Source: Candidatus Heimdallarchaeum aukensis (GTDB lineage Archaea; Asgardarchaeota; Heimdallarchaeia; Heimdallarchaeales; Heimdallarchaeaceae). From it: a DNA stretch of 64,000 nucleotides. Shown one piece after another: positions 11,202 through 49,153 of the stretch. The position numbers and the translations under genes are program-made. The notes under the pieces are model-generated. The model saw only the letters and a list, made by a program, of their open reading frames with translations. It was not told the origin of the DNA and did not search any database. The first letter of the stretch is position 1. Each line of letters begins with the position of its first letter. The DNA is taken from contig CP084166.1 in assembly GCA_021513695.1 (NCBI GenBank), positions 192,001 through 256,000 on the forward strand, in the 5' to 3' direction.

Positions 11202-12944
11202 ATGAGTGACAATAGAAGTATAGAGAAAAATCTTGAAAAGCTTGTCCCCCCACATGGAGGAAAACTTGTAGACAAACACATAATAAGTGAAGAAGAAAGG
11301 TACAATTATGTTGAAAAAGCAAAAACTTTGCCTGTTTTAGAATTAAATGAAAGAACATTAGCTGATCTTGAATGTATAGCTACTGGAGTTTACTCTCCTC
11401 TAACAGGATTTATGACAGAAGAAGATTACAATAGTGTTGTCGAAACAATGCGATTGAAAAATGGTATAATTTGGCCTATTCCAGTAACTCTTCCAGTTGA
11501 TGATAACTTTGCTGAAAGTTTAAGTAAAGGAGATGAAATTGCATTAAAGTGGAATGGCATATATATGGGTTTAATGACTGTTTCTGATATTTACAAACCT
11601 GATAAAAAGAAAGAAGCTCTTAATGTTTATAAAACAGAAGATAGCGCTCATCCTGGAGTAGCTGCTCTATACCAAACTGGAAGCTATTATTTGGGAGGAG
11701 AAGTTTTATTAATTGATGATCTTCCTCACAAAGATTTTGTAGAATATAGATTTACTCCAAAACAAACAAGAACTGAATTTGCAAAAAGAGGGTGGAAAAC
11801 AGTCGTAGCTTTCCAAACAAGGAACCCAATACACAGAGCACATGAATATTTACAGAAAGTTGCTTTAGAATCTGTTGATGGATTATTCATAAATCCTCTT
11901 GTGGGTTCAACAAAAAGTGATGATGTTCCAGTTCAAACTAGAATGGAAACTTACAAAGTAATATTAAATGCTTACTATCCAAAAGATAGATTCTTCCTAG
12001 GAGTATTCCCTGCAAACATGAGGTATGCTGGCCCTAGAGAAGCAATTATGCATGCAATTGCTAGACAAAATTATGGTTGTTCTCACATTATTATTGGAAG
12101 AGACCATGCTGGAGTTGGAAACTACTATGGAACTTATGAAGCTCAAGAGATTTTTGAACAATTTAGTGATAATGAGTTAAAGATTAAACCTTTCAAATTT
12201 GAGCACGCTTTTTATTGTAAAATTTGTGAGCAAATGGCTACTCAAAAGACTTGTCCTCATGGTAAAGAGAGTCATGTTTATCTCTCTGGAACAAAAGTTA
12301 GGCAGATGTTAAGAGAAGGACAAATGCTTCCTAGAGAGTTTACTCGACCAGAAGTAGCTATGATTTTAACTGATGCTTATAATGGAAAGGCAAAAATAGA
12401 ACAAAAGGGTGTAACTTTACTATTTACTGGTCTTAGCGGATCAGGAAAAACAACAATAACTAAAGCTCTTGCTCAGGAATTAAAGAAAAGAGGATATCAA
12501 GTAGAACGTCTTGATGGAGATGTTGTAAGACAGTATCTAACCAAAGATTTGGGCTTCAGTAAACATGACAGAGATGAAAACATTAGAAGAGTAGGCTTCG
12601 TTGCTCATATGTTAACTCGTAACAATGTTATAGTTTTAATGGCTAATATTGCTCCTTATCAAGCAGTAAGAGACGAAATCAGACAACTAATTGGAGACTT
12701 TATGGAAGTATATGTAAAAGCTCCTCTAGAGGTTTGTGAATCTAGAGATGTAAAAGGATTATATAAGAAAGCAAAAGCAGGTGAAATATTAAATTTCACA
12801 GGAGTCAATGATCCATATGAACCTCCAACTAACCCTGAAATTGTTTGTGAAACTGATAAAGAAACTGTAGAAGAATCAGTCCATAAAGTATTAGCAAAGT
12901 TAGTCGAATATGGATATGTTGATTCTAGTGTTTTAGAGAAATAA
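11202..12944 (+). CDS. Bifunctional sulfate adenylyltransferase (ATP sulfurylase) / adenylylsulfate kinase fusion
   Basis: The N-terminal half has [11 protein letters not shown] and GRDHAG, the ATP sulfurylase motifs. The C-terminal half has [13 protein letters not shown], the APS kinase P-loop. Confidence 0.85.
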
Positions 12945-13019: not shown

Positions 13020-13658
13020 ATGGAAAAAAATATTGAATCTGTTCCTTTATGGAAGAAAATCGGAGAGAAACTAACACCATATTTAACGAGAGATGATTTC
13101 ATTTCTATGGATAAAGAACGATATATCAGCCTTATTAAAAGATTGAAAGCAATAAATGAATTATCTGAAAAACAATATACTTACGCAAACATTAATCGAG
13201 ATTTAATTTTAATCCGAATGGGGCTTATTCACAATCTTCCAGAAATAACAGATGATTCATTAGAAACAATATTGAAGCAACTAGCTGTTCACTTAGCAAT
13301 ATTATATTACAATGATAATGATGTTAGTAGTTGGACTGAAGCAGAAAATAAGGTTTTAGAAGTTATTTCTTCTGGATTTGAATCAAGAGTAACTATGGGT
13401 TTAAGTCCTACAGAGCATTTAGAAACTTTAAGCTCGAAAATAAAAGAAATAGGACAGATAAATAAAGAAACAATTGCACAAATTATAAATGAAATTGAAG
13501 AAACAAAAGATAAACTCATGCAGTCAGGTATCTCTGGTGTCACTTTGCATAAATTCACTCAATACGCACAAAAACTTAAAAGAGCTGATGATGAATTACC
13601 AACAAAATATGATATATTAGAAGAAATTGCGAGTTGGCAAGAACTTATCTCAAAATAA
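13020..13658 (+). CDS. Hypothetical protein
   Basis: The ORF is 212 aa. No recognisable motif was found. Confidence 0.3.
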   Translation: MEKNIESVPLWKKIGEKLTPYLTRDDFISMDKERYISLIKRLKAINELSEKQYTYANINRDLILIRMGLIHNLPEITDDSLETILKQLAVHLAILYYNDNDVSSWTEAENKVLEVISSGFESRVTMGLSPTEHLETLSSKIKEIGQINKETIAQIINEIEETKDKLMQSGISGVTLHKFTQYAQKLKRADDELPTKYDILEEIASWQELISK

Positions 13659-14520
13659 AAAGACTAGGGGAGTAAAATTGAGTAAGAACAAGAAAGAAGA
13701 CAAAAAGAAAAGTGAAGACATAGTCAACAATGTTAAAGAAACAATTCCAGATCTACCAGAAATTTTCAGACACGAAAAGAAAGAAGAAACAGAAGAAATA
13801 GCTAGTATTCCAAAAGTAAAAATTGAGAAAAAAGAAAAAGAGCAAGTTGAAGAAACAAAGTCTAGTAATCTTTTTGGTCAGAAAATTCAAGGTCTAAAAG
13901 AAAAAGTTGAACAAATTGTAAATGTTAACAAATTACGTCCCCGAATTGAAAAAGATATTGAAAATCTACTTAAAGATGGAAACACATTACTTATCGGTAA
14001 AAATGTAGGTGTCTTTGCAGAGAGATTAACAGAAAAAGGAATGAATATAATAGCTCGAGACACATCAATTACCTTTATCAGTCCCAAAACTGAAGTGAAT
14101 AATGTAAAAATATTAGAAAAAATGGAATTAAAACCCTTTTCTCTGGAAAAGATGAATAATCTTAAAGGTCCTTTCATAAATATTATTTTATTTTTTGCTT
14201 TAAAAGGAAGAAAAAAGGAAGAAATTTACTCAATAGTAAATAAGTGTAAACAACTATTGTACTCCTCTGGTCTTCTCTTTATTGTAGAAGAATCTACTTC
14301 AGGGTTAAATATTTTTTTAAATTTCTTTAAGTATTTAACCTATGTAAATAAATTCATTAAAAGTAAGATTAAGAAAGAAGAATATACTTGGCCAGTAGTT
14401 AAAATAAAAAAAGTAATTAAACAACTCGAACTAAGAAAATTCAAGACATTCGTTTATGGGGGAAGAAATGTTCAAACTTATGTTCTAGCAAAAAGACTAA
14501 GTGCCTTTCTTTCTAGATAG
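13627..14520 (+). CDS. Hypothetical protein with Lys/Glu-rich N-terminal region and possible Rossmann-like C-terminal domain
   Basis: LLIGKNVGVFAERLTEKGMNIIARD resembles MTase motif I. The start codon is uncertain because the ORF overlaps the previous one. Confidence 0.3.
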   Translation: MRVGKNLSQNKKTRGVKLSKNKKEDKKKSEDIVNNVKETIPDLPEIFRHEKKEETEEIASIPKVKIEKKEKEQVEETKSSNLFGQKIQGLKEKVEQIVNVNKLRPRIEKDIENLLKDGNTLLIGKNVGVFAERLTEKGMNIIARDTSITFISPKTEVNNVKILEKMELKPFSLEKMNNLKGPFINIILFFALKGRKKEEIYSIVNKCKQLLYSSGLLFIVEESTSGLNIFLNFFKYLTYVNKFIKSKIKKEEYTWPVVKIKKVIKQLELRKFKTFVYGGRNVQTYVLAKRLSAFLSR

Positions 14521-29087: not shown

Positions 29088-29879
29088 ATGTGGACAAGTG
29101 AGCATAAACCTATTGTTGGTGTTTTTGGTTTCAGTGGTTGTGCTGGAGATCAGTTGCGATTAATTCATATGGAGGATGAACTTGTTAGTTTATTTACCAC
29201 AGCAGAGATTAAATTCTTTCATATGGCTCAATCTCATCAAGAAGTTGAGCATGTTGACATTGCTCTAGTTGAAGGTAGTATAAATACCAAAAAGCAACTT
29301 GAAGAACTGAAAGAGATACGTGAAAAATCTACTTTTCTAGTTGCATTAGGTACTTGTGCTTGTTTTGGCGGTATTCAATATTTGAACGAGAAAGATGAAG
29401 CTTTTGAAGAGCGATTTAGACATGTATACGGTTCAAATATCAAGAAAAAAGAATTTATAGTCGGAGAAGCTATCCCTCCTCAACCTTTATGCAACTTTGT
29501 AAAAGTCGATGCCATGGTTCCAGGATGTCCAATAGAAAAAGATAATCTTTTACCTATATACACTAAATTGATAAAAGGTATTAGACCTCAAAAATATCCT
29601 GCTCCCGTTTGCGTTGAATGTAAATTGGAAGGTAATGATTGTCTTCTTCTTCACGGTATTCCTTGTATAGGACCTGTGGTCTCTGCAGGTTGTGGAGCTA
29701 TATGCCCTAGTCATAATCTCCCATGTGTAGGTTGTTGGGGTCCTTATGAAGCAGCGAACTATAAATCAATGATTGACAAGCTCGAAGAGATAGGTGTAGA
29801 TAAAGAAACAGCGTTACGCAAGATCAAGTTATTTGGCGGAAGTAAGGCAGAAGAAGAATTGGAAAAGGTGATAAAATGA
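29088..29879 (+). CDS. hydD: [NiFe] hydrogenase small (delta) subunit
   Basis: GFSGCAGDQ and GTCACFGG are cluster motifs, followed by C-rich segments. It overlaps hydA by 4 nt. Confidence 0.75.
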   Translation: MWTSEHKPIVGVFGFSGCAGDQLRLIHMEDELVSLFTTAEIKFFHMAQSHQEVEHVDIALVEGSINTKKQLEELKEIREKSTFLVALGTCACFGGIQYLNEKDEAFEERFRHVYGSNIKKKEFIVGEAIPPQPLCNFVKVDAMVPGCPIEKDNLLPIYTKLIKGIRPQKYPAPVCVECKLEGNDCLLLHGIPCIGPVVSAGCGAICPSHNLPCVGCWGPYEAANYKSMIDKLEEIGVDKETALRKIKLFGGSKAEEELEKVIK

Positions 29880-31159
29880 GTAAGGATATTAATGTAAAAG
29901 TTCTCTCTCGTGTTGAGGGCGATGGAGGAATAAAAGTATATGTGAAGAACAATAAAGTGGAACAAGTGCTAGTTGATATTTTTGAAGGACCACGAATGAT
30001 CGAAGCTTTAGTAAGAGGAAAAACTTTTCAGGAAAACGTTTCTCTCGTATCAAGGATTTGTGCAATTTGTACAGTTTCACATCGTTATGCTTCAATCAAA
30101 GCAATAGAGAAAGCTCTGAAGGTTGAAGTTCCTGAGAAGATACAATTGTTAAGAAAACTTCTACATTTAGCTGAATATATAGAATCTCATATTTTACATG
30201 TTTACTTCTTAGCCCTTCCTGATTTCTTTAGGAAACCTAGTGCTATCGCTTTACTTCCTACACATAAAGAAACTGTTGTAGAAGCAATAACATTGAAGAA
30301 GTACGGAACAGAATTAATGAAATTGTTAATGGGGAGAAAGATTCATGGAGAAAATCCACAAGTAGGCGGTTTTGGAAGAATACCAACTAATAAAGAACTA
30401 GATGAATTTGCTGAAAAAGCAAAAGAATATATTCCTCAACTTGCTGCATTTATCGATGTGTTAGCTTCACTTGAAATACCAGATTATTGCGAGAGAGAAA
30501 CAACATTTATGTGTTGTAATCCTCCAAACAATGAATTTGGATTTGAAGGAGACACTATTCTTATTTCTACTGGAGAGGAATATCCTGTTGAAGAATACAA
30601 GAAACTAACAAATGAGCGAGTTGTTCCTCATTCATATGCTAAAAGATCAAGATACAAAGATAAACCATTCACCGTTGGAGCACTAGCAAGACTTATTTTA
30701 ATTGGTGATAGACTAACAGGATTAGCTAAAGAAAAATTTGAGAATTACTATAATGAAAAATGGAAAGTTAATCCATTATACAATAACTTAGCTCAAGCAA
30801 TAGAAGCTCTCTGGTCATTTGAACAGATTCCAGAACTAGTAGAAAAAATAAAGTCTCTTCCTGACTCAGAAATCGTTGAAGTGAAAAACCTTAACGGAAA
30901 AGCAACTGCAGCTGTTGAAGCTCCTAGAGGTATACTCTATCACACCTATGAAATTAAGGATGGAAAGATGGTCAGCGCTGACATTATTACACCAACTGCT
31001 CAATTCCTTGATGATGTTGAAGAGTACATTAGAGTTGCAGCAGAGAAGCTAATTGCCGAGAAAAACGAAGAAACCGAGTTACATTTAGAAATGATTGCTA
31101 GAGCTTATGATCCTTGTATCTCTTGCAGTTGCCACATGGTAAAACTAATTGAAGAATAA
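29876..31159 (+). CDS. hydA: [NiFe] hydrogenase large (alpha) subunit
   Basis: The N-terminal Ni-binding motif is RICAICTVSH (RxCxxCxxxH). The C-terminal motif is DPCISCSCH (DPCxxCxxH). Confidence 0.9.
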   Translation: MSKDINVKVLSRVEGDGGIKVYVKNNKVEQVLVDIFEGPRMIEALVRGKTFQENVSLVSRICAICTVSHRYASIKAIEKALKVEVPEKIQLLRKLLHLAEYIESHILHVYFLALPDFFRKPSAIALLPTHKETVVEAITLKKYGTELMKLLMGRKIHGENPQVGGFGRIPTNKELDEFAEKAKEYIPQLAAFIDVLASLEIPDYCERETTFMCCNPPNNEFGFEGDTILISTGEEYPVEEYKKLTNERVVPHSYAKRSRYKDKPFTVGALARLILIGDRLTGLAKEKFENYYNEKWKVNPLYNNLAQAIEALWSFEQIPELVEKIKSLPDSEIVEVKNLNGKATAAVEAPRGILYHTYEIKDGKMVSADIITPTAQFLDDVEEYIRVAAEKLIAEKNEETELHLEMIARAYDPCISCSCHMVKLIEE

Positions 31160-31170
31160 AAGTGTGGTAA

Positions 31171-31650
31171 TTGACAGAAGAAAATTCAAACCCTTTTTCT
31201 TTTTCTTGTTTTACAAAACCAGAACACACTGCTTTTCTTTGTTTTGGAAATTTAGATAGAAGTGATGACGCTATAGGTCTTCTTATAGCTCGAGATTTAA
31301 AAAACCTTTTTCCACACGTTTTTAGTGAAGAATTCGACGACCCCATTGGCGAACTACTAATGATTCTTGAAGATGAAAGTATAGAGTGCATAACTGTAAT
31401 TGATGCATGTGATCTAAAAGCTGAAAATGGAAGTGTAATTGTATCTTCTAATATTAAAGTTGCAGAAAGTCGTTTGAGTACACATACTATACCTATAAAG
31501 CAATTGATAGAACTGATCCACAACGAAGGAAAAGAATTTGTTTTTATTGGTGTTCAAGTTTATAATGTAGAATTTATGGGAGAAATGAGTGAAGAAGTAT
31601 TAAAAGCTAAAGAAAAAATCCTTTCTTGGTTTGTTAAAGAAAATCAATGA
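31171..31650 (+). CDS. hycI: Hydrogenase maturation endopeptidase (HycI/HybD family)
   Basis: LCFGNLDRSDDAIGLLIA matches the protease family N-terminus (GN.L..DDG.G). The gene lies directly downstream of the large subunit. Confidence 0.7.
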   Translation: MTEENSNPFSFSCFTKPEHTAFLCFGNLDRSDDAIGLLIARDLKNLFPHVFSEEFDDPIGELLMILEDESIECITVIDACDLKAENGSVIVSSNIKVAESRLSTHTIPIKQLIELIHNEGKEFVFIGVQVYNVEFMGEMSEEVLKAKEKILSWFVKENQ

Positions 31651-32980
31651 GTTCTCTCATTTTTGAATAAGCATCTATTCCTTTTCTTGTAATTGAATAA
31701 TATTTTTTGTTTTTCCCTTTTATTTTTGAAGAAATCAGATTCTTTTCTTCAAGCTCATTGAGATGTTGGTATATTGATTGAAGCGATTTTCTTTTTCCTA
31801 GAGCTTTCCAGATAGCGTAACCGTGATTTGCTTTCTTTCTGGAAATCAGATCCAATATTTCAAACTTTGTTGTAGATTTTTCAGAAAGACCCCATACTGC
31901 TTTTTTAATTCCTCTTAATTTAGAAGCAAATATGTTTAACGCATTCAAGCCTGACCCAGAAAGAAGAGCAACTGTAGAATCGACGTTGATTCCTTCATTT
32001 TCTAATAATTGATTAGCAGCAACAACAACAGAAGCTGAAGCAGGTTCAATAAATAAGCCTTCTTTTTTTGCTAAAAGAAGGGCTTGATCTATCATTTTTT
32101 CTCCCTCTATTTCAATTTCTTTTCCTTTAGTTTTTAGAAGAATATCGCCGATTTTTTGAGAAAGTGTCTGAGGTGTAGGAATCTTTAGAGATTCTGCATA
32201 AAAGTCTAAATCTTCTTGTTTCAAAGACACAGCATAAAATGAGGGGATTTTTTCTATCCAACCAGATGCTAAAGCATCTTCAAAACCCCTATATATAGAA
32301 TAGAAAAGAGAGCCAGAACCTTTTGGAATAATAATATTTTCAATTGTTTCAGATAAGTGAGCGATTTCTAAACCTATAGTTTTCTGACCTTCAACAGTCA
32401 AAATATTGTCAGATGAAGCGAAAAAAACTCCACCCTTTTGTAGTTCTCTCCCCTTCTCAATTGCTTCTTCAGTAGTAGAACCATGTTCGACTACTTTACT
32501 TCCATAAACTTTCATCTGTTCAATTTTTGATAATTCTAAATTCGAAGGTACAATGTTAGTGAGTTCTAAACCTGCTAATGCAGAGTAAGCTGATAAACTT
32601 ATGCCTAAAGAACCAGAACTAGAGCACACCAGTTTAGAAATAGAGGAAGAAGAAAGATAAGAAGCAATAAGTGAAGATGCACGGTCTCTGAATGATCCAG
32701 TTGGATTTCTAAATTCAAGTTTTAGTTTTAATCCTTTTAGTGATGAAATGTTGTTAATTAATAAAATAGGTGTATTTCCTTCAGACAATGTATAAACCTT
32801 CTCTAGTGAAGGTAAAAAAGGACTGAATGACCATATATTTGATATTTTTATCTTACTTTTTTCAGGTCCTTGAATAGGGTCTATGTTTTGGATAGAACCA
32901 CAAAAAGGGCAAAGAAGATCAAAATTAATAGATAATGTATCTTTCTTACATTTGATACAATACGGTTTTTTCTTCCACAT
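31634..32980 (-). CDS. Threonine-synthase-like (fold-type II PLP) domain protein with N-terminal zinc ribbon and C-terminal PadR-type winged helix; the PLP-lysine is replaced by Arg
   Basis: The N-terminus has CIKCKK...CPFCG. The core reads LSEGNTPIL...FRNPTGSFRDRAS. The Lys position is codon AGA at 32687-32689 on the minus strand. The C-terminus FEILDLISRKKANHGYAIWKAL...KKYYSITRKGIDA is a PadR pattern. Confidence 0.7.
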   Translation of the reverse strand: MWKKKPYCIKCKKDTLSINFDLLCPFCGSIQNIDPIQGPEKSKIKISNIWSFSPFLPSLEKVYTLSEGNTPILLINNISSLKGLKLKLEFRNPTGSFRDRASSLIASYLSSSSISKLVCSSSGSLGISLSAYSALAGLELTNIVPSNLELSKIEQMKVYGSKVVEHGSTTEEAIEKGRELQKGGVFFASSDNILTVEGQKTIGLEIAHLSETIENIIIPKGSGSLFYSIYRGFEDALASGWIEKIPSFYAVSLKQEDLDFYAESLKIPTPQTLSQKIGDILLKTKGKEIEIEGEKMIDQALLLAKKEGLFIEPASASVVVAANQLLENEGINVDSTVALLSGSGLNALNIFASKLRGIKKAVWGLSEKSTTKFEILDLISRKKANHGYAIWKALGKRKSLQSIYQHLNELEEKNLISSKIKGKNKKYYSITRKGIDAYSKMRELIDFL

Positions 32981-32991
32981 TTTTTAGCTCC

Positions 32992-33186
32992 TTATTCTGT
33001 TAAAACAGGCTCTTCTTTTGGATCGATTCTAATATCGCTATTACAGAGTGCATCAAAAATTTCTTCGATCTTAAAAGAATCAGGGTCTTTAAAGTAGAGA
33101 TAAAGTTCCAAATCTCTCTTGATTAAGAAATCAAGAAGTTTTATAAGCAATTCTTTTTCTGTTTTTGAGTTAACAATAATTTGCAT
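32992..33186 (-). CDS. Hypothetical small protein (64 aa), 12 nt upstream of the ThrC-like gene on the same strand
   Basis: The ORF reads MQIIVNSKTEKELLIKLLDF.... It is tightly spaced with the downstream gene. No motif was recognised. Confidence 0.3.
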   Translation of the reverse strand: MQIIVNSKTEKELLIKLLDFLIKRDLELYLYFKDPDSFKIEEIFDALCNSDIRIDPKEEPVLTE

Positions 33187-33371
33187 TATATAAACATAGA
33201 TTTTCTATTCTTATATTTTTTGAATAAATATTACATTATTTTTGAATAAACAAAGTTGTCCTAAACATTCTTTAAATCAATATCTTTCATATTTTTTTGA
33301 TTTGAAAAATAATTGTTTTTAAGATAATTTTATAAATAACCTCTATCTTTTGATAAAATAAGGAGTTAAAA

Positions 33372-35081
33372 ATGCCACAGAAATTATGGAAATATATACC
33401 TTCAATACCTGATGAAATTGAAATACCAGATAAGAGTATTATTGAATTATTTAGAGAAACAGCTAGCAATTTTCAAGATTTACCACTAACTTATTTTGAA
33501 GGAAAATACAAAACCTACAAAGAAGTAGTTGATGACATTAATCGTTTAGCAAATGGTTTAAGAGATTTGGGTATAAAGAAAGGTGATAGGGTTGCAGCCT
33601 TTTTACCCAATAGCCCTCAATTTGTAGTAACTTTCTTAGCTGTACATTCATTAGGAGCTATTTTTACAGGTATTAGTGCACTCAGTTCCCAAAAAGAACT
33701 TCAATATCAACTAGAAGATAGTGGAGCAAAAGCTATAGTCACTTTTGATGTATTTTTAGACAAAGTCAGAGAAGTTAAAGGTGAAACATCACTAGAGCAT
33801 ATCATTGTCACATCTGCAGCTGATGAGTTGCCTTCAATTAAAGCATTTTTATATAGATTAATAATAGGTAGAAAGAATCCTAAAGTAAAAAATGAAATAA
33901 AATACAAGGATTTATTAAAGAAAAGTTCAAATGAACCAATTATTACAAAAGTAGATCCAAAGGAAGATATAGCAATTCTGCAATATACTGGTGGTACAAC
34001 TGGTGTAATGAAGGGTGCAATGCTTACTCACAGAAACTTAGTTGCCCAAGCGATTACTCTAGATTATTGGAAAAATTGGTTAGATAACGTGCCAGAAAAG
34101 CCATATAGAATAGTTGGAGCTTTACCGTTTTCTCATATTTTTGGACTTTCAACTTCGTTATTATGGCCTGCGATTGCTGGAGCAACAATATATCTGTTCC
34201 CTGACCCAAGAAAATTAGAAGCAATAATGAAGTCAATAGACAAATTCAAAATTCAATTTTTCATGGGTATTCCTGTAATGTTCTTGAAAATATCAGAACA
34301 TCCTAATGTGGATAAATATGATCTATCCTCTTTACTAATGTGCATTTCTGGAGGAGAATCCTTACCGCAAGTAACAGTTGAAAAATTTGAATCAAAAACA
34401 GGTAATGTTCTAGTTGAGGGATATGGTTTAACTGAATCTTCACCTGTTACACATGTCAACCCTGCAAATCGAAAATATAGGAAAATAGGAACAATCGGTA
34501 TACCAATACCTAATGTAAAAGCAATGATAGTCGATACAGATACATTAGAAGAAATAACAGAGTTTGGAAAACCAGGAGAATTATGGATTCGAGGACCTTC
34601 AGTGATGAAAGGATACTGGAACAATAAAGAAGCAACAGAAAACTCTCTAGTGAAAGGTTGGTTAAGAACAGGAGATATAGCTGTCATGGATGAAGAAGGG
34701 TTCTTTGCAATAGTAGATAGAATAAAAGATATGATTATCGTTTCAGGCTATAAAGTGTGGCCTAATGAAGTTGAGGATGTGCTATATAGTCACCCTGCAA
34801 TAAATATGGCAGCAGTAATTGGTGAAAAAGCTGAAACAAAAGAAATAGTAAAAGCATATCTAGTAAAAGAACCAGGACATGAAGAGTTGTCGCTAGAAGA
34901 AGTAAGAGAATATTGTAAGAAACACTTGGCTCCTTATAAAGTTCCAAGAAAAATAGAATACTTAGAAGAATTACCACGCACAGCTCTTGGAAAAGTTCTA
35001 AGAAAAGAACTAAGAGCATTATCAGCGGTAACATCTGCTCAATCATTACCAAAAGAAACTATTGAAAAACTAGCTAAATAG
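33372..35081 (+). CDS. AMP-dependent synthetase/ligase (acyl-CoA synthetase)
   Basis: YTGGTTGVMKGA is the AMP-binding motif. The product is 569 aa. An SD-like aggag lies upstream. Confidence 0.85.
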   Translation: MPQKLWKYIPSIPDEIEIPDKSIIELFRETASNFQDLPLTYFEGKYKTYKEVVDDINRLANGLRDLGIKKGDRVAAFLPNSPQFVVTFLAVHSLGAIFTGISALSSQKELQYQLEDSGAKAIVTFDVFLDKVREVKGETSLEHIIVTSAADELPSIKAFLYRLIIGRKNPKVKNEIKYKDLLKKSSNEPIITKVDPKEDIAILQYTGGTTGVMKGAMLTHRNLVAQAITLDYWKNWLDNVPEKPYRIVGALPFSHIFGLSTSLLWPAIAGATIYLFPDPRKLEAIMKSIDKFKIQFFMGIPVMFLKISEHPNVDKYDLSSLLMCISGGESLPQVTVEKFESKTGNVLVEGYGLTESSPVTHVNPANRKYRKIGTIGIPIPNVKAMIVDTDTLEEITEFGKPGELWIRGPSVMKGYWNNKEATENSLVKGWLRTGDIAVMDEEGFFAIVDRIKDMIIVSGYKVWPNEVEDVLYSHPAINMAAVIGEKAETKEIVKAYLVKEPGHEELSLEEVREYCKKHLAPYKVPRKIEYLEELPRTALGKVLRKELRALSAVTSAQSLPKETIEKLAK

Positions 35082-48126: not shown

Positions 48127-48990
48127 TTATTTTTTATCTACAAAATTTATGGTTAAGATATTAATTATACCTTTTTCAACTAAATTAGCTAAGATTGCGA
48201 TATATTCACTAAAAGAAAAATTATACTTTAGTTCATTGTATATTAGTAATATGTTGTTTTTATCATTGTTTTTACACTTTTCAATAATAGAAGCTAGATT
48301 TCGACTTTCAACAGTATCAAGGTCATTAAAAATCTCTCCAAATTCAGTGTCTTCTTTTATAGTTTGAGGAATTGAGCAAATACTATTTATTATTAATTCA
48401 AGAGCAAGTTTATCGCTCAAGTTCATCTCGTTCGTTACCTTATCATCTAAAAATTTTAGTACAAGTTCTAAAGCTTTGACATCAATATAGGTTGCTTTAG
48501 AGTAAGCTTCTTCAATTCCAGTTAACCATTTTTTAACTTGTTTTTTCTGAACTTCTTTTTCTGTTAATATTTGAATTTCAAGGAATTGGTCATCAATAAT
48601 TATTTTATCTAAGTCGTTTTTTTTAGTTTGATCAAAAACAAATATCTTATTTCTAATTTTATCGTTTATTTGGAAATAATCAATGTTTCTGATTCTAATA
48701 AGATGATCAGTAATGATTTCAATTTTCGATCTCTCTACTTTTTGAGGAGAAGGAAGAGGAAGTCCAGGAATACTAGATTCATCATTTTCCTTTTTTACTG
48801 GAATCTGTGTCCTTACATTTAAATCAGAATCCACATGAAGTAGAATAGCATTTTCCTTATTACCTTTGCATTTGTGAACATCAATAATATCCATTAAACC
48901 TCTCGTATCTACATTAAAATTTATATTTTCAGGAAGACCCATTATTCTTTGTTTTAAGCAGATGTTACATTGATATTCTATCTTCTTCAT
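48127..48990 (-). CDS. Hypothetical protein, paralogue of 35162..36112 (C-x2-C...H-x-C N-terminus, wHTH-like C-terminus)
   Basis: YQCNICLKQRI...IDVHKCKG; C-terminus ...IAILANLVEKGIINIL. Confidence 0.4.
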   Translation of the reverse strand: MKKIEYQCNICLKQRIMGLPENINFNVDTRGLMDIIDVHKCKGNKENAILLHVDSDLNVRTQIPVKKENDESSIPGLPLPSPQKVERSKIEIITDHLIRIRNIDYFQINDKIRNKIFVFDQTKKNDLDKIIIDDQFLEIQILTEKEVQKKQVKKWLTGIEEAYSKATYIDVKALELVLKFLDDKVTNEMNLSDKLALELIINSICSIPQTIKEDTEFGEIFNDLDTVESRNLASIIEKCKNNDKNNILLIYNELKYNFSFSEYIAILANLVEKGIINILTINFVDKK

Positions 48991-49153
48991 TCAAACTCTA
49001 CCATTAAATTATATATTTATTTTATTCATGAAGGAATTAATTAATATTTTGGTTTTTTCTTTTAAAATTTCTTAGAGATAAAATTATATTTTAAAAAGTA
49101 ATCTTAAATTATGGCTTAAAACCTTTCTAGTTTAAACTTTTTTGTAATTTAAA

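Follow-up and report, generated by a model that had tools for sequence, protein, structure and literature searches.

A lysine-less threonine synthase-like protein fused to a winged helix in Candidatus Heimdallarchaeum aukensis belongs to a widespread archaeal family with a probable role in vitamin B6 regulation

Introduction

The question raised by the locus described here is what function should be assigned to a protein that has the fold of threonine synthase (ThrC), an enzyme dependent upon pyridoxal 5'-phosphate (PLP), but carries an arginine in place of the Schiff-base lysine and, in addition, a C-terminal winged helix-turn-helix (wHTH) domain. The gene for this protein is found in a 64-kb stretch of DNA from Candidatus Heimdallarchaeum aukensis (positions 192,001-256,000 of contig CP084166.1), which is referred to below as the window. 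A first-pass annotation, made from the sequence alone, had viewed the protein as a regulator of transcription in which a repurposed pseudoenzyme with a PLP fold serves as the sensor. At the family level this view is strongly supported by our results, viz. by the coupling between the loss of the lysine and the presence of the wHTH domain, and by palindromes in the promoters of neighbouring genes. The signal and the regulon, which had been missed, are likely to be vitamin B6 and the genes for its synthesis and uptake (pdxS-pdxT, and energy-coupling factor (ECF) transporters of the PdxU/HmpT type). We consider it probable that the gene encodes a non-catalytic, B6-sensing transcriptional repressor from a ThrC-derived archaeal family, which is a functional analogue of PdxR; the architecture, the synteny and the sequence motifs are observed, and what we infer is that B6 is the ligand, that the protein acts by repression and that it binds DNA as a dimer. 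The broader proposition, that Archaea, including the Asgards as relatives of eukaryotes, control the synthesis and uptake of B6 with a regulator invented independently of the bacterial PdxR, is favoured with somewhat less assurance.

Regulators of the MocR type, the only ones known to depend on PLP, are lacking in Archaea (PMC5320631). The present family provides a candidate archaeal B6 regulator with predicted operators and targets. According to reviews, the transporters and the regulation of B6 are poorly known, and only three prokaryotic transporters have been described, which include PdxU and PdxU2/HmpT, both of the PF07155/COG4720 family (Denise et al., PMC9997740). No description of a ThrC-wHTH fusion or of an archaeal B6 regulator was found in the literature, in a search whose coverage left out most subscription journals, so that prior work is possible.

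Loss of the catalytic lysine in proteins bearing a wHTH domain

The ThrC-like domain of the window protein (Table 1) is matched by the Pfam PALP profile with an E value of 7e-49. Its closest PDB sequences and folds are threonine synthases (2zsj, 6cgq, 2d1f and 1uim), with an E value of 1e-27 for the sequence matches, and in Foldseek the best structural matches (2zsj, 3aey and 6nmx) show a probability of 1.00 and a TM-score (target) of ~0.8. The AlphaFold2 (AF2) model of the 448-aa protein has a pLDDT of 89.7. The core reads NPTGSFRDRAS, as had been stated in the first-pass annotation, and its Arg98, coded by AGA, occupies the column of the lysine in the SFKDR motif of these enzymes. The two flanking domains proposed earlier were also recovered. 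In the N-terminal ribbon, C8, C11 and C27 are invariant and C24 is at least 90% conserved among 69 sequences, and this Cys4 ribbon is shared with the canonical archaeal ThrC paralogues. The C-terminal domain, which is preceded in the model by a low-confidence linker (residues 358-366), scores 36.5 bits with Pfam PadR (PF03551; E 5e-9) against a gathering score of 27; a failure of this segment to score as PadR, named beforehand as a result that would speak against the annotation, was not seen. When the wHTH domain is compared with the PDB, PadR-family regulators rank best, weakly (5dym, E 0.011), and its recognition-helix motif, Q-x-I/V-Y-Q-H-L, is near-invariant among homologues. The family considered here is defined by a zinc ribbon, a ThrC-like PALP domain, a C-terminal wHTH domain with Q-x-[IV]-Y-Q-H-L and a residue other than lysine at the Schiff-base position, and all of these are present in the window protein.

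The possibility that the arginine is due to a sequencing or assembly error, with AAA given as AGA by a single transition, can be rejected, because arginine is present at this position in 118 of the 119 near-full-length close homologues and also in the 90%-identical orthologue from the nearest relative, Ca. Heimdallarchaeum endolithica PR6, whose genome is complete. The arginine is therefore genuine, which settles a doubt raised in the first-pass annotation. In the 120 database homologues, which reach down to ~30% identity and include the cultured Promethearchaeum syntrophicum and Lokiarchaeum ossiferum, all have arginine except one with serine. However, arginine is only one of many replacements of this lysine, a fact that had been missed. 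The best 150 matches of a profile search of 1.84 billion representatives were aligned to the family HMM. Of the 86 representatives (50% identity) that bear the wHTH domain, 84 have a residue other than lysine in this column (R 21, L 21, I 18, V 8, M 4, T 4 and F 3, with S, Y, H, A and N once each; K is found in 2), whereas lysine is present in 60 of the 61 representatives lacking this domain (Fisher p=1e-37). The coupling between the loss of the lysine and the fusion to a wHTH domain is nearly perfect. Since residues as different as L, I, V, M, F, T and R occur in this column, the position has no conserved chemical role, and the variation is incompatible with catalysis there. To judge from these sequences, the wHTH-fused members almost certainly lack threonine-synthase catalytic activity.

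Other motifs of the active site are also altered. In ThrC the arginine of NP[FY]R-x-EGQKT binds the phosphate of the substrate and GNAGN forms the PLP-phosphate loop, and in fold-type II enzymes generally the ring and the phosphate of PLP are contacted by the asparagine of S/T-x-G-N, by the G-S/N-G-G loop and by T-G-S-G. The canonical archaeal ThrC paralogues have NPFRLEGQKT and GNAGN, whereas the window protein has NILTVEGQKT and GSGSL, and SSGSL in place of STGNT. The substrate-phosphate arginine is replaced in all members of the fusion family, while the alignment shows that most members keep the PLP-contact motifs S/T-x-G-N, G-S/N-G-G and T-G-S-G.

When NPT[GN]SFRDR was searched for in one genome per species, at least 592 genome stretches proved to be relatives, and these are found in Heimdall-, Loki-, Odin-, Jord- and Baldr-archaea, Bathyarchaeia, Desulfurococcales, Thermoprotei and some Methanomicrobia. 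The fusion family is widespread in Archaea and not specific for the Asgards, which the first-pass annotation had missed. A subclade from Bathyarchaeia (loci L026, L027, L028, L034, L039, L041, L048, L050, L051, L057, L061 and L076 of our collection) has lysine (NPTNSFKDRS) and keeps the wHTH domain, the downstream transporter component described below and a candidate operator, TATAGTT-N2-AACTATA. As this small clade is nested inside arginine-bearing clades in a rough neighbour-joining tree, its lysine is suggested to be a reversion.

Gene neighbours and candidate operators

Arginine-bearing orthologues were found in other Asgard genomes, and their neighbours include the S component of an ECF transporter. 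When the ORFs of 80 related loci and of the window were clustered (81 loci), an S component of the PF07155 family, a membrane protein of 180-270 aa (Pfam E values from 1e-24 to 2e-36), was present directly downstream of the regulator in 63 of the 81 loci, and in 58 of these 63 it is co-oriented. This adjacency spans Heimdall-, Loki- and Odinarchaea, Bathyarchaeia and Desulfurococcales, and in Heimdall, Desulfurococcales and Njord loci a fused EcfA-A' ATPase and an EcfT-like protein come after the S component. The only PDB sequence match of the S component is chain S of 4HZU, the L. brevis protein HmpT/PdxU2 (E 2.7e-14, in a gapless alignment of 137 residues), which was originally named HmpT and is reported to carry pyridoxamine (PMC4860826). 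Eight other subfamilies (50% identity) with different replacements of the lysine were sampled for their neighbours, and either pdxS-pdxT or the S component was adjacent in all eight. The neighbour is pdxS-pdxT (PF01680 + PF01174) in the Leu (Baldrarchaeia), Val and His (Hodarchaeales) subfamilies, and the PF07155 S component in the Ile, Thr (Njordarchaeales, with the full ECF module), Phe, Ile and Met subfamilies. In one locus of the Arg type (L065) pdxS-pdxT lies directly downstream and takes the place of the S gene. The contig of this locus (DATHCJ010000024.1) is labelled 'Candidatus Limnocylindrales bacterium', while its regulator groups with Bathyarchaeia and its operator is of the Bathyarchaeia type; it may be a mis-binned archaeal contig.

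A search for operators covered 94 loci (1.2 Mb), in which the 63 regions upstream of S genes were compared with random control regions. In loci of the Arg and Lys types the S gene is preceded by a conserved palindrome, which lies after a TATA-like box and before the start codon. Its form in the Asgards is TTCAAGTT-GT-AACTTGAA and in Bathyarchaeia TAGTATAGTT-AT-AACTATACTA, and the core common to both is AGTT-N2-AACT. The exact core is found in 38 of the 63 S-upstream regions as against 1.1% of the random ones, and with at most one mismatch in 53 of the 63 as against 9%. Of the 71 exact matches to the core in 1.2 Mb, 45 lie in S-upstream regions, an enrichment of ~195-fold, and all six exact matches to CAAGTTNNAACTTG in the 94 loci are located just upstream of an S gene. 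In L065, the same site, TAGTATAGCTGCAACTATACTA, precedes pdxS. In five other subfamilies (L081, L084, L085, L086 and L090) a different dyad was found, ATATATAGG-N6-CCTATATAT (consensus ATAT(A/T)TA(G/A)G-N6-CCT(A/T)ATAT), whose 3' half ends 19-31 nt before the ATG of the regulator, where the intergenic region is common to the regulator and to pdxS or the S gene. A site over the TATA box or transcription start is the usual arrangement for archaeal repressors, and these palindromes are candidate operators of the regulator, at which it would act by repression.

An operator upstream of the regulator gene itself was also considered and is not supported, the palindromes being found before the S gene instead. 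The enumeration of exact dyads upstream of the regulator in 80 loci gave nothing above shuffled controls, the enrichment of 7-mers in the same place yielded only the clade-specific, promoter-like AACCGATAAAAG, and no conserved block was seen when the Heimdall intergenic regions between the acyl-CoA synthetase gene and a 64-aa ORF upstream of the regulator were aligned. A scan for sigma-70 promoters and terminators was uninformative, the host being an archaeon.

In 27 Bathyarchaeia loci the S component is followed by a protein of the aminoimidazole ribonucleotide (AIR)-synthase type (PF00586/PF02769; e.g. L023, 12214-13224), and in L065 such a protein follows pdxST (13033-14040). It scores under every curated cut-off, including those for HypE, ThiL and SelD, and might be an ATP-dependent enzyme linked to B6, for instance an unrecognized vitamer kinase, or a mere syntenic neighbour.

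Loss of the transporter cassette in the lineage of the window

In the Heimdall loci L003, L004 and L092-L094 the order of genes is acyl-CoA synthetase (-), 64-aa ORF, regulator, S component, EcfAA', EcfT-like protein, HycI (-), [NiFe]-hydrogenase large subunit (-) and small subunit (-), with an extra minus-strand ORF for a 499-aa membrane protein between EcfT and HycI in L003 and L004. In the window and in L001 the order is acyl-CoA synthetase, 64-aa ORF, regulator, HycI, large subunit and small subunit. Both the window (31634-31650, 29088-31650) and H. endolithica PR6 lack the S-AA'-T cassette of ~3.3 kb, which in related Heimdall genomes is located between the regulator and the operon for HycI and the [NiFe] hydrogenase. 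In neither of them does the regulator adjoin an S component or pdxS-pdxT with the family operator, whereas the cassette is found in the sister loci L003-L005 and L092-L094. Because the two share the gene order of their relatives minus S-AA'-T, the usual target cassette, together with its operator, has been lost in this lineage, which the first-pass annotation had missed.

Despite this loss, purifying selection acts on the regulator. When the window is compared with H. endolithica, the ratio dN/dS is 0.078 for the whole regulator and 0.031 for its wHTH domain, as compared with 0.044 for the neighbouring acyl-CoA synthetase. As the regulator has been retained and constrained although the cassette is lost, it presumably acts on targets elsewhere in the genome, outside the window. 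No Heimdallarchaeaceae entry was present among the best 120 matches in a search for the PdxS of this lineage, PdxS being too conserved.

Proposed function and alternative interpretations

In the mechanism proposed here, a threonine synthase would have been duplicated, would have lost the Schiff-base lysine, with the result that the binding of PLP is reversible, and would have gained a wHTH domain. The resulting protein, in which the ThrC-like fold has neither this lysine (Arg98 in the present case) nor the arginine for the phosphate of the substrate, is predicted to bind a B6 vitamer, most likely PLP, in the old cofactor pocket non-covalently and reversibly, with no aldimine being formed. A dimer like that of ThrC would bring a pair of PadR-type wHTH domains to an operator, a palindrome located after the TATA box and before the start of the target gene, and the targets would be repressed when B6 is plentiful. 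In relatives of the window gene these targets would be the ECF importer of the PdxU/HmpT type and/or the PLP synthase genes pdxS-pdxT, and in the lineage of the window, where the adjacent cassette is gone, the regulator would act on sites elsewhere in the genome.

Several observations weigh against this interpretation. No S component, pdxS or pdxT is present within the 64-kb window, and no match to the operator in the window is above chance (3 matches with at most 3 mismatches as against 2.6 expected). Of the four matches to the AGTT-N2-AACT core in the window, three are inside coding sequence; with neither a target gene nor an operator above chance in the window, the function of the gene in this genome is carried over from its orthologues alone. 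The sole intergenic core match is at 49129-49138 (CTAGTTTAAACTTT), 139 nt upstream of a 287-aa ORF (48127-48990, -) that has no Pfam match, and it is not above chance. Further, neither type of operator is found upstream of the regulator genes of the Arg type or in Desulfurococcales loci; the Arg-type loci of Desulfurococcales/Thermoprotei without the AGTT-N2-AACT core (L038, L043, L062, L064 and L073) have the S component and EcfAA', and any operator in them would be a different one. The Asgard clade with arginine, inclusive of the window protein, is also devoid of the asparagine that contacts PLP O3' (STGSF/SSGSL) and has GSGSL as its phosphate loop, due to which its ligand may differ from PLP itself. 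With regard to the transporter, His84, a ligand residue of HmpT, aligns to lysine in the archaeal S components. In a comparison with 4HZU_S (e.g. of L072, 11476-12018) the ligand residue Glu41 is kept as E or D (FNIGE), a glutamine near His84 is changed to glutamate, and most archaeal S components carry an insertion of 70-90 aa. Because of the changes at His84 and the glutamine and of this insertion, the substrate specificity of these S components may differ from pyridoxamine. PF07155 also includes carriers predicted for hydroxymethylpyrimidine (HMP), a precursor of thiamine, and in nine Bathyarchaeia loci a canonical, lysine-bearing thrC divergently adjoins the regulator.

The last two observations each suggest a different function. 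If the ancestral specificity of ThrC has been kept, the regulator could sense a metabolite of the threonine pathway (O-phosphohomoserine, threonine or homoserine) and control amino-acid metabolism. ThrC is indeed the closest relative of the domain, and homoserine dehydrogenase is present beyond thrC in several of the nine loci (six loci have this ORF cluster). However, all nine (L014, L016, L019, L025, L042, L045, L052, L059 and L074) belong to one Bathyarchaeia clade, and the adjacency may simply stem from a tandem duplication that gave rise to the regulator, or from a PLP enzyme being co-regulated. In view of the replacement of the substrate-phosphate arginine throughout the fusion family, and of widespread neighbours that are S components and pdxST rather than threonine genes, we regard a threonine sensor as unlikely. 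There is a similarly small chance that the regulator controls the uptake of HMP or another micronutrient, with the S component as a true HmpT. This would agree with the first predictions made for PF07155 carriers, with the original naming of the 4HZU S component (PMC4860826) and with the sub-threshold similarity of the AIR-synthase-type protein in the 27 Bathyarchaeia loci to ThiL and HypE. Yet that protein is below every curated cut-off, the alternative neighbours in four independent loci are pdxS-pdxT and not thiamine genes, pdxS of L065 is preceded by the same candidate operator as the S genes, and the fold of a PLP enzyme is a natural sensor for B6.

Two other explanations deny the protein a regulatory role, either in this genome or altogether. 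That the gene is here a functionless relic left by the deletion of the transporter cassette would account for the lack of the cassette and operator in the window and H. endolithica, and for the window as a whole having yielded no operator. However, the ORF is intact in both genomes and its dN/dS values are similar to the value for acyl-CoA synthetase, which makes a relic very improbable. It is harder still to believe that the protein is an enzyme using PLP non-covalently or some other chemistry, with the wHTH domain as an accessory. The protein still has the fold of the enzyme and much of its cofactor pocket, and in NCBIfam the family stands as an equivalog for threonine synthase; but the Schiff-base lysine is essential in all known fold-type II enzymes, the diversity of residues at this position is as described above, and genomes bearing the fusion can also hold a canonical ThrC. 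All four explanations are less supported than a B6-responsive repressor.

Relationship to known systems and significance for annotation

The known systems most similar to this family are PdxR and other MocR regulators (GabR, TauR), wHTH transcription factors in which the fold of a PLP-dependent enzyme has likewise been put to new use as effector domain. The bacterial PdxR regulons consist of pdxST, pdxK and pdxU (PMC5320631), and genes of these kinds (pdxST, pdxU) flank the archaeal family, although not in the window itself. However, the MocR proteins have an N-terminal GntR wHTH domain and a fold-type I aminotransferase domain in which the PLP lysine is kept (PMC5320631), whereas the archaeal family has a C-terminal PadR wHTH domain, a fold-type II (ThrC) domain with the lysine replaced, and an N-terminal zinc ribbon. 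Since the neighbours correspond to the content of the PdxR regulon but the PLP fold and the DNA-binding domain are different, the archaeal family is an analogue and not a homologue of PdxR/MocR. It provides a clean natural example of a pseudoenzyme, in which the catalytic lysine was lost where a DNA-binding domain was gained, convergent with MocR from a different PLP fold.

In Archaea, vitamin regulators derived from an enzyme domain of the pathway fused to a DNA-binding domain include ThiR, which consists of a ThiN domain and a DNA-binding domain, and RbkR. The latter, a riboflavin kinase with a wHTH domain, binds palindromes in the promoters of biosynthesis and ECF/transport genes and controls ribU (PMC5397151); it differs from the present family in its enzyme fold, in its vitamin and in having kept its catalytic activity, where the ThrC-wHTH family has lost the catalytic residue. 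The PadR-family regulators share with it a PadR-scoring wHTH domain, and palindromes are enriched at the orthologous loci, though none is above chance in the window; classical PadR proteins, however, are of ~110-180 aa, with an N-terminal wHTH domain and a helical dimerization domain, whereas here the wHTH domain is C-terminal to an enzyme-derived domain of 350 aa. The closest relatives remain ThrC (TIGR00260, and the zinc-ribbon forms PRK06450/PRK08329), which have in common with the window protein the zinc ribbon, NPTGSF-x-DR, EGQKT and TG-x-GLK. In contrast to ThrC, the window protein has no Schiff-base lysine or substrate-phosphate arginine, differs in the GNAGN loop, bears a wHTH domain in addition, and falls under all curated ThrC cut-offs (80 bits vs 167 for TIGR00260, and 138 vs 301 for NF005035).

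The NCBIfam family NF004170 (PRK05638, "threonine synthase", an equivalog) has the same full-length architecture as the window protein, which aligns with its profile positions 4-436 of 442 at 252 bits as against a cut-off of 421; the name of this family, however, implies catalysis. Arginine-bearing relatives fused to the wHTH domain (L013, L014, L017, L043 and L064) exceed the 421-bit cut-off, and public sources name such relatives threonine synthase. For NF004170 members this name is very probably a misnomer, and probably a systematic misannotation of archaeal genomes. Because proteins that pass NF004170 are named threonine synthase, metabolic reconstructions for Asgard archaea, Bathyarchaeia and Thermoproteota may wrongly credit these organisms with threonine biosynthesis or count it twice. 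If the proposed function is correct, the curated equivalog would be a family of pseudoenzyme regulators, and the same family would pinpoint an archaeal B6 importer (an ECF transporter of the PdxU/HmpT type) and possibly a new B6-linked enzyme of the AIR-synthase type. We thus have a large archaeal family, hitherto unrecognized, for which a coherent and testable role in vitamin B6 homeostasis can be proposed; the ligand, mode and targets of the window gene are, as above, what we infer for it.

Other features of the locus

The positions of the different features can be found in Table 1. The 64-aa ORF had been placed in the first-pass annotation 12 nt upstream of the regulator; the ORF and its orientation are upheld, and the spacer is 11 nt. 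This ORF is present at the same position in eight Heimdall-group loci, is also called in L092-L094, and was seen upstream of the regulator only in loci of the Heimdall group. A Shine-Dalgarno-like GGAG precedes the ATG of the regulator. It has no match in Pfam or NCBIfam, and its single-sequence AF2 model is poor (pLDDT 62), but it too appears to be under purifying selection, with a dN/dS of 0.043 between the window and H. endolithica at which dS is saturated. In the region 33150-33400 only weak AT-rich inverted repeats were found, which are not conserved in the 90%-identical relative, and neither of the family operator motifs is present in the intergenic region 33187-33371; the TATAGG-N6-CCTATA dyad of the non-Arg subfamilies is absent from the entire window and from the Arg-type loci.

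Table 1. Coordinates, strand and basis of assignment for the features of the regulator locus in the window
Feature	Position	Strand	Basis or remark
ThrC-like (Lys-less) wHTH fusion gene	31634..32980	-	ORF with ATG start, 448 aa; Pfam PALP + PadR
N-terminal Cys4 zinc ribbon (C8-x2-C11...C24-x2-C27)	32900..32959	-	Conserved Cys
ThrC-like domain with the type II fold of PLP enzymes (residues 64-342), a predicted non-catalytic sensor	31955..32791	-	Pfam PALP, Foldseek
AGA codon for Arg98, at the Schiff-base lysine position	32687..32689	-	Sequence, and alignment to SFKDR of solved ThrCs
C-terminal PadR-type wHTH domain, residues 375-437	31670..31858	-	Pfam PadR
Conserved 64-aa acidic ORF, co-oriented, 11 nt upstream of the regulator	32992..33186	-	Synteny
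Intergenic region separating the 64-aa ORF/regulator unit from the divergent acyl-CoA synthetase gene; presumed promoters	33187..33371	.	No conserved operator found
Junction without the ECF S-AA'-T cassette; 3' end of the regulator overlaps the convergent HycI gene by 17 nt	31634..31650	.	Gene order compared with relatives
HycI protease gene	31171-31650	+	Convergent with the regulator

Elsewhere in the window, a fused gene for ATP-sulfurylase and APS kinase (PUA_2 + ATP-sulfurylase + APS_kinase) is located at 11202-12944 (+).

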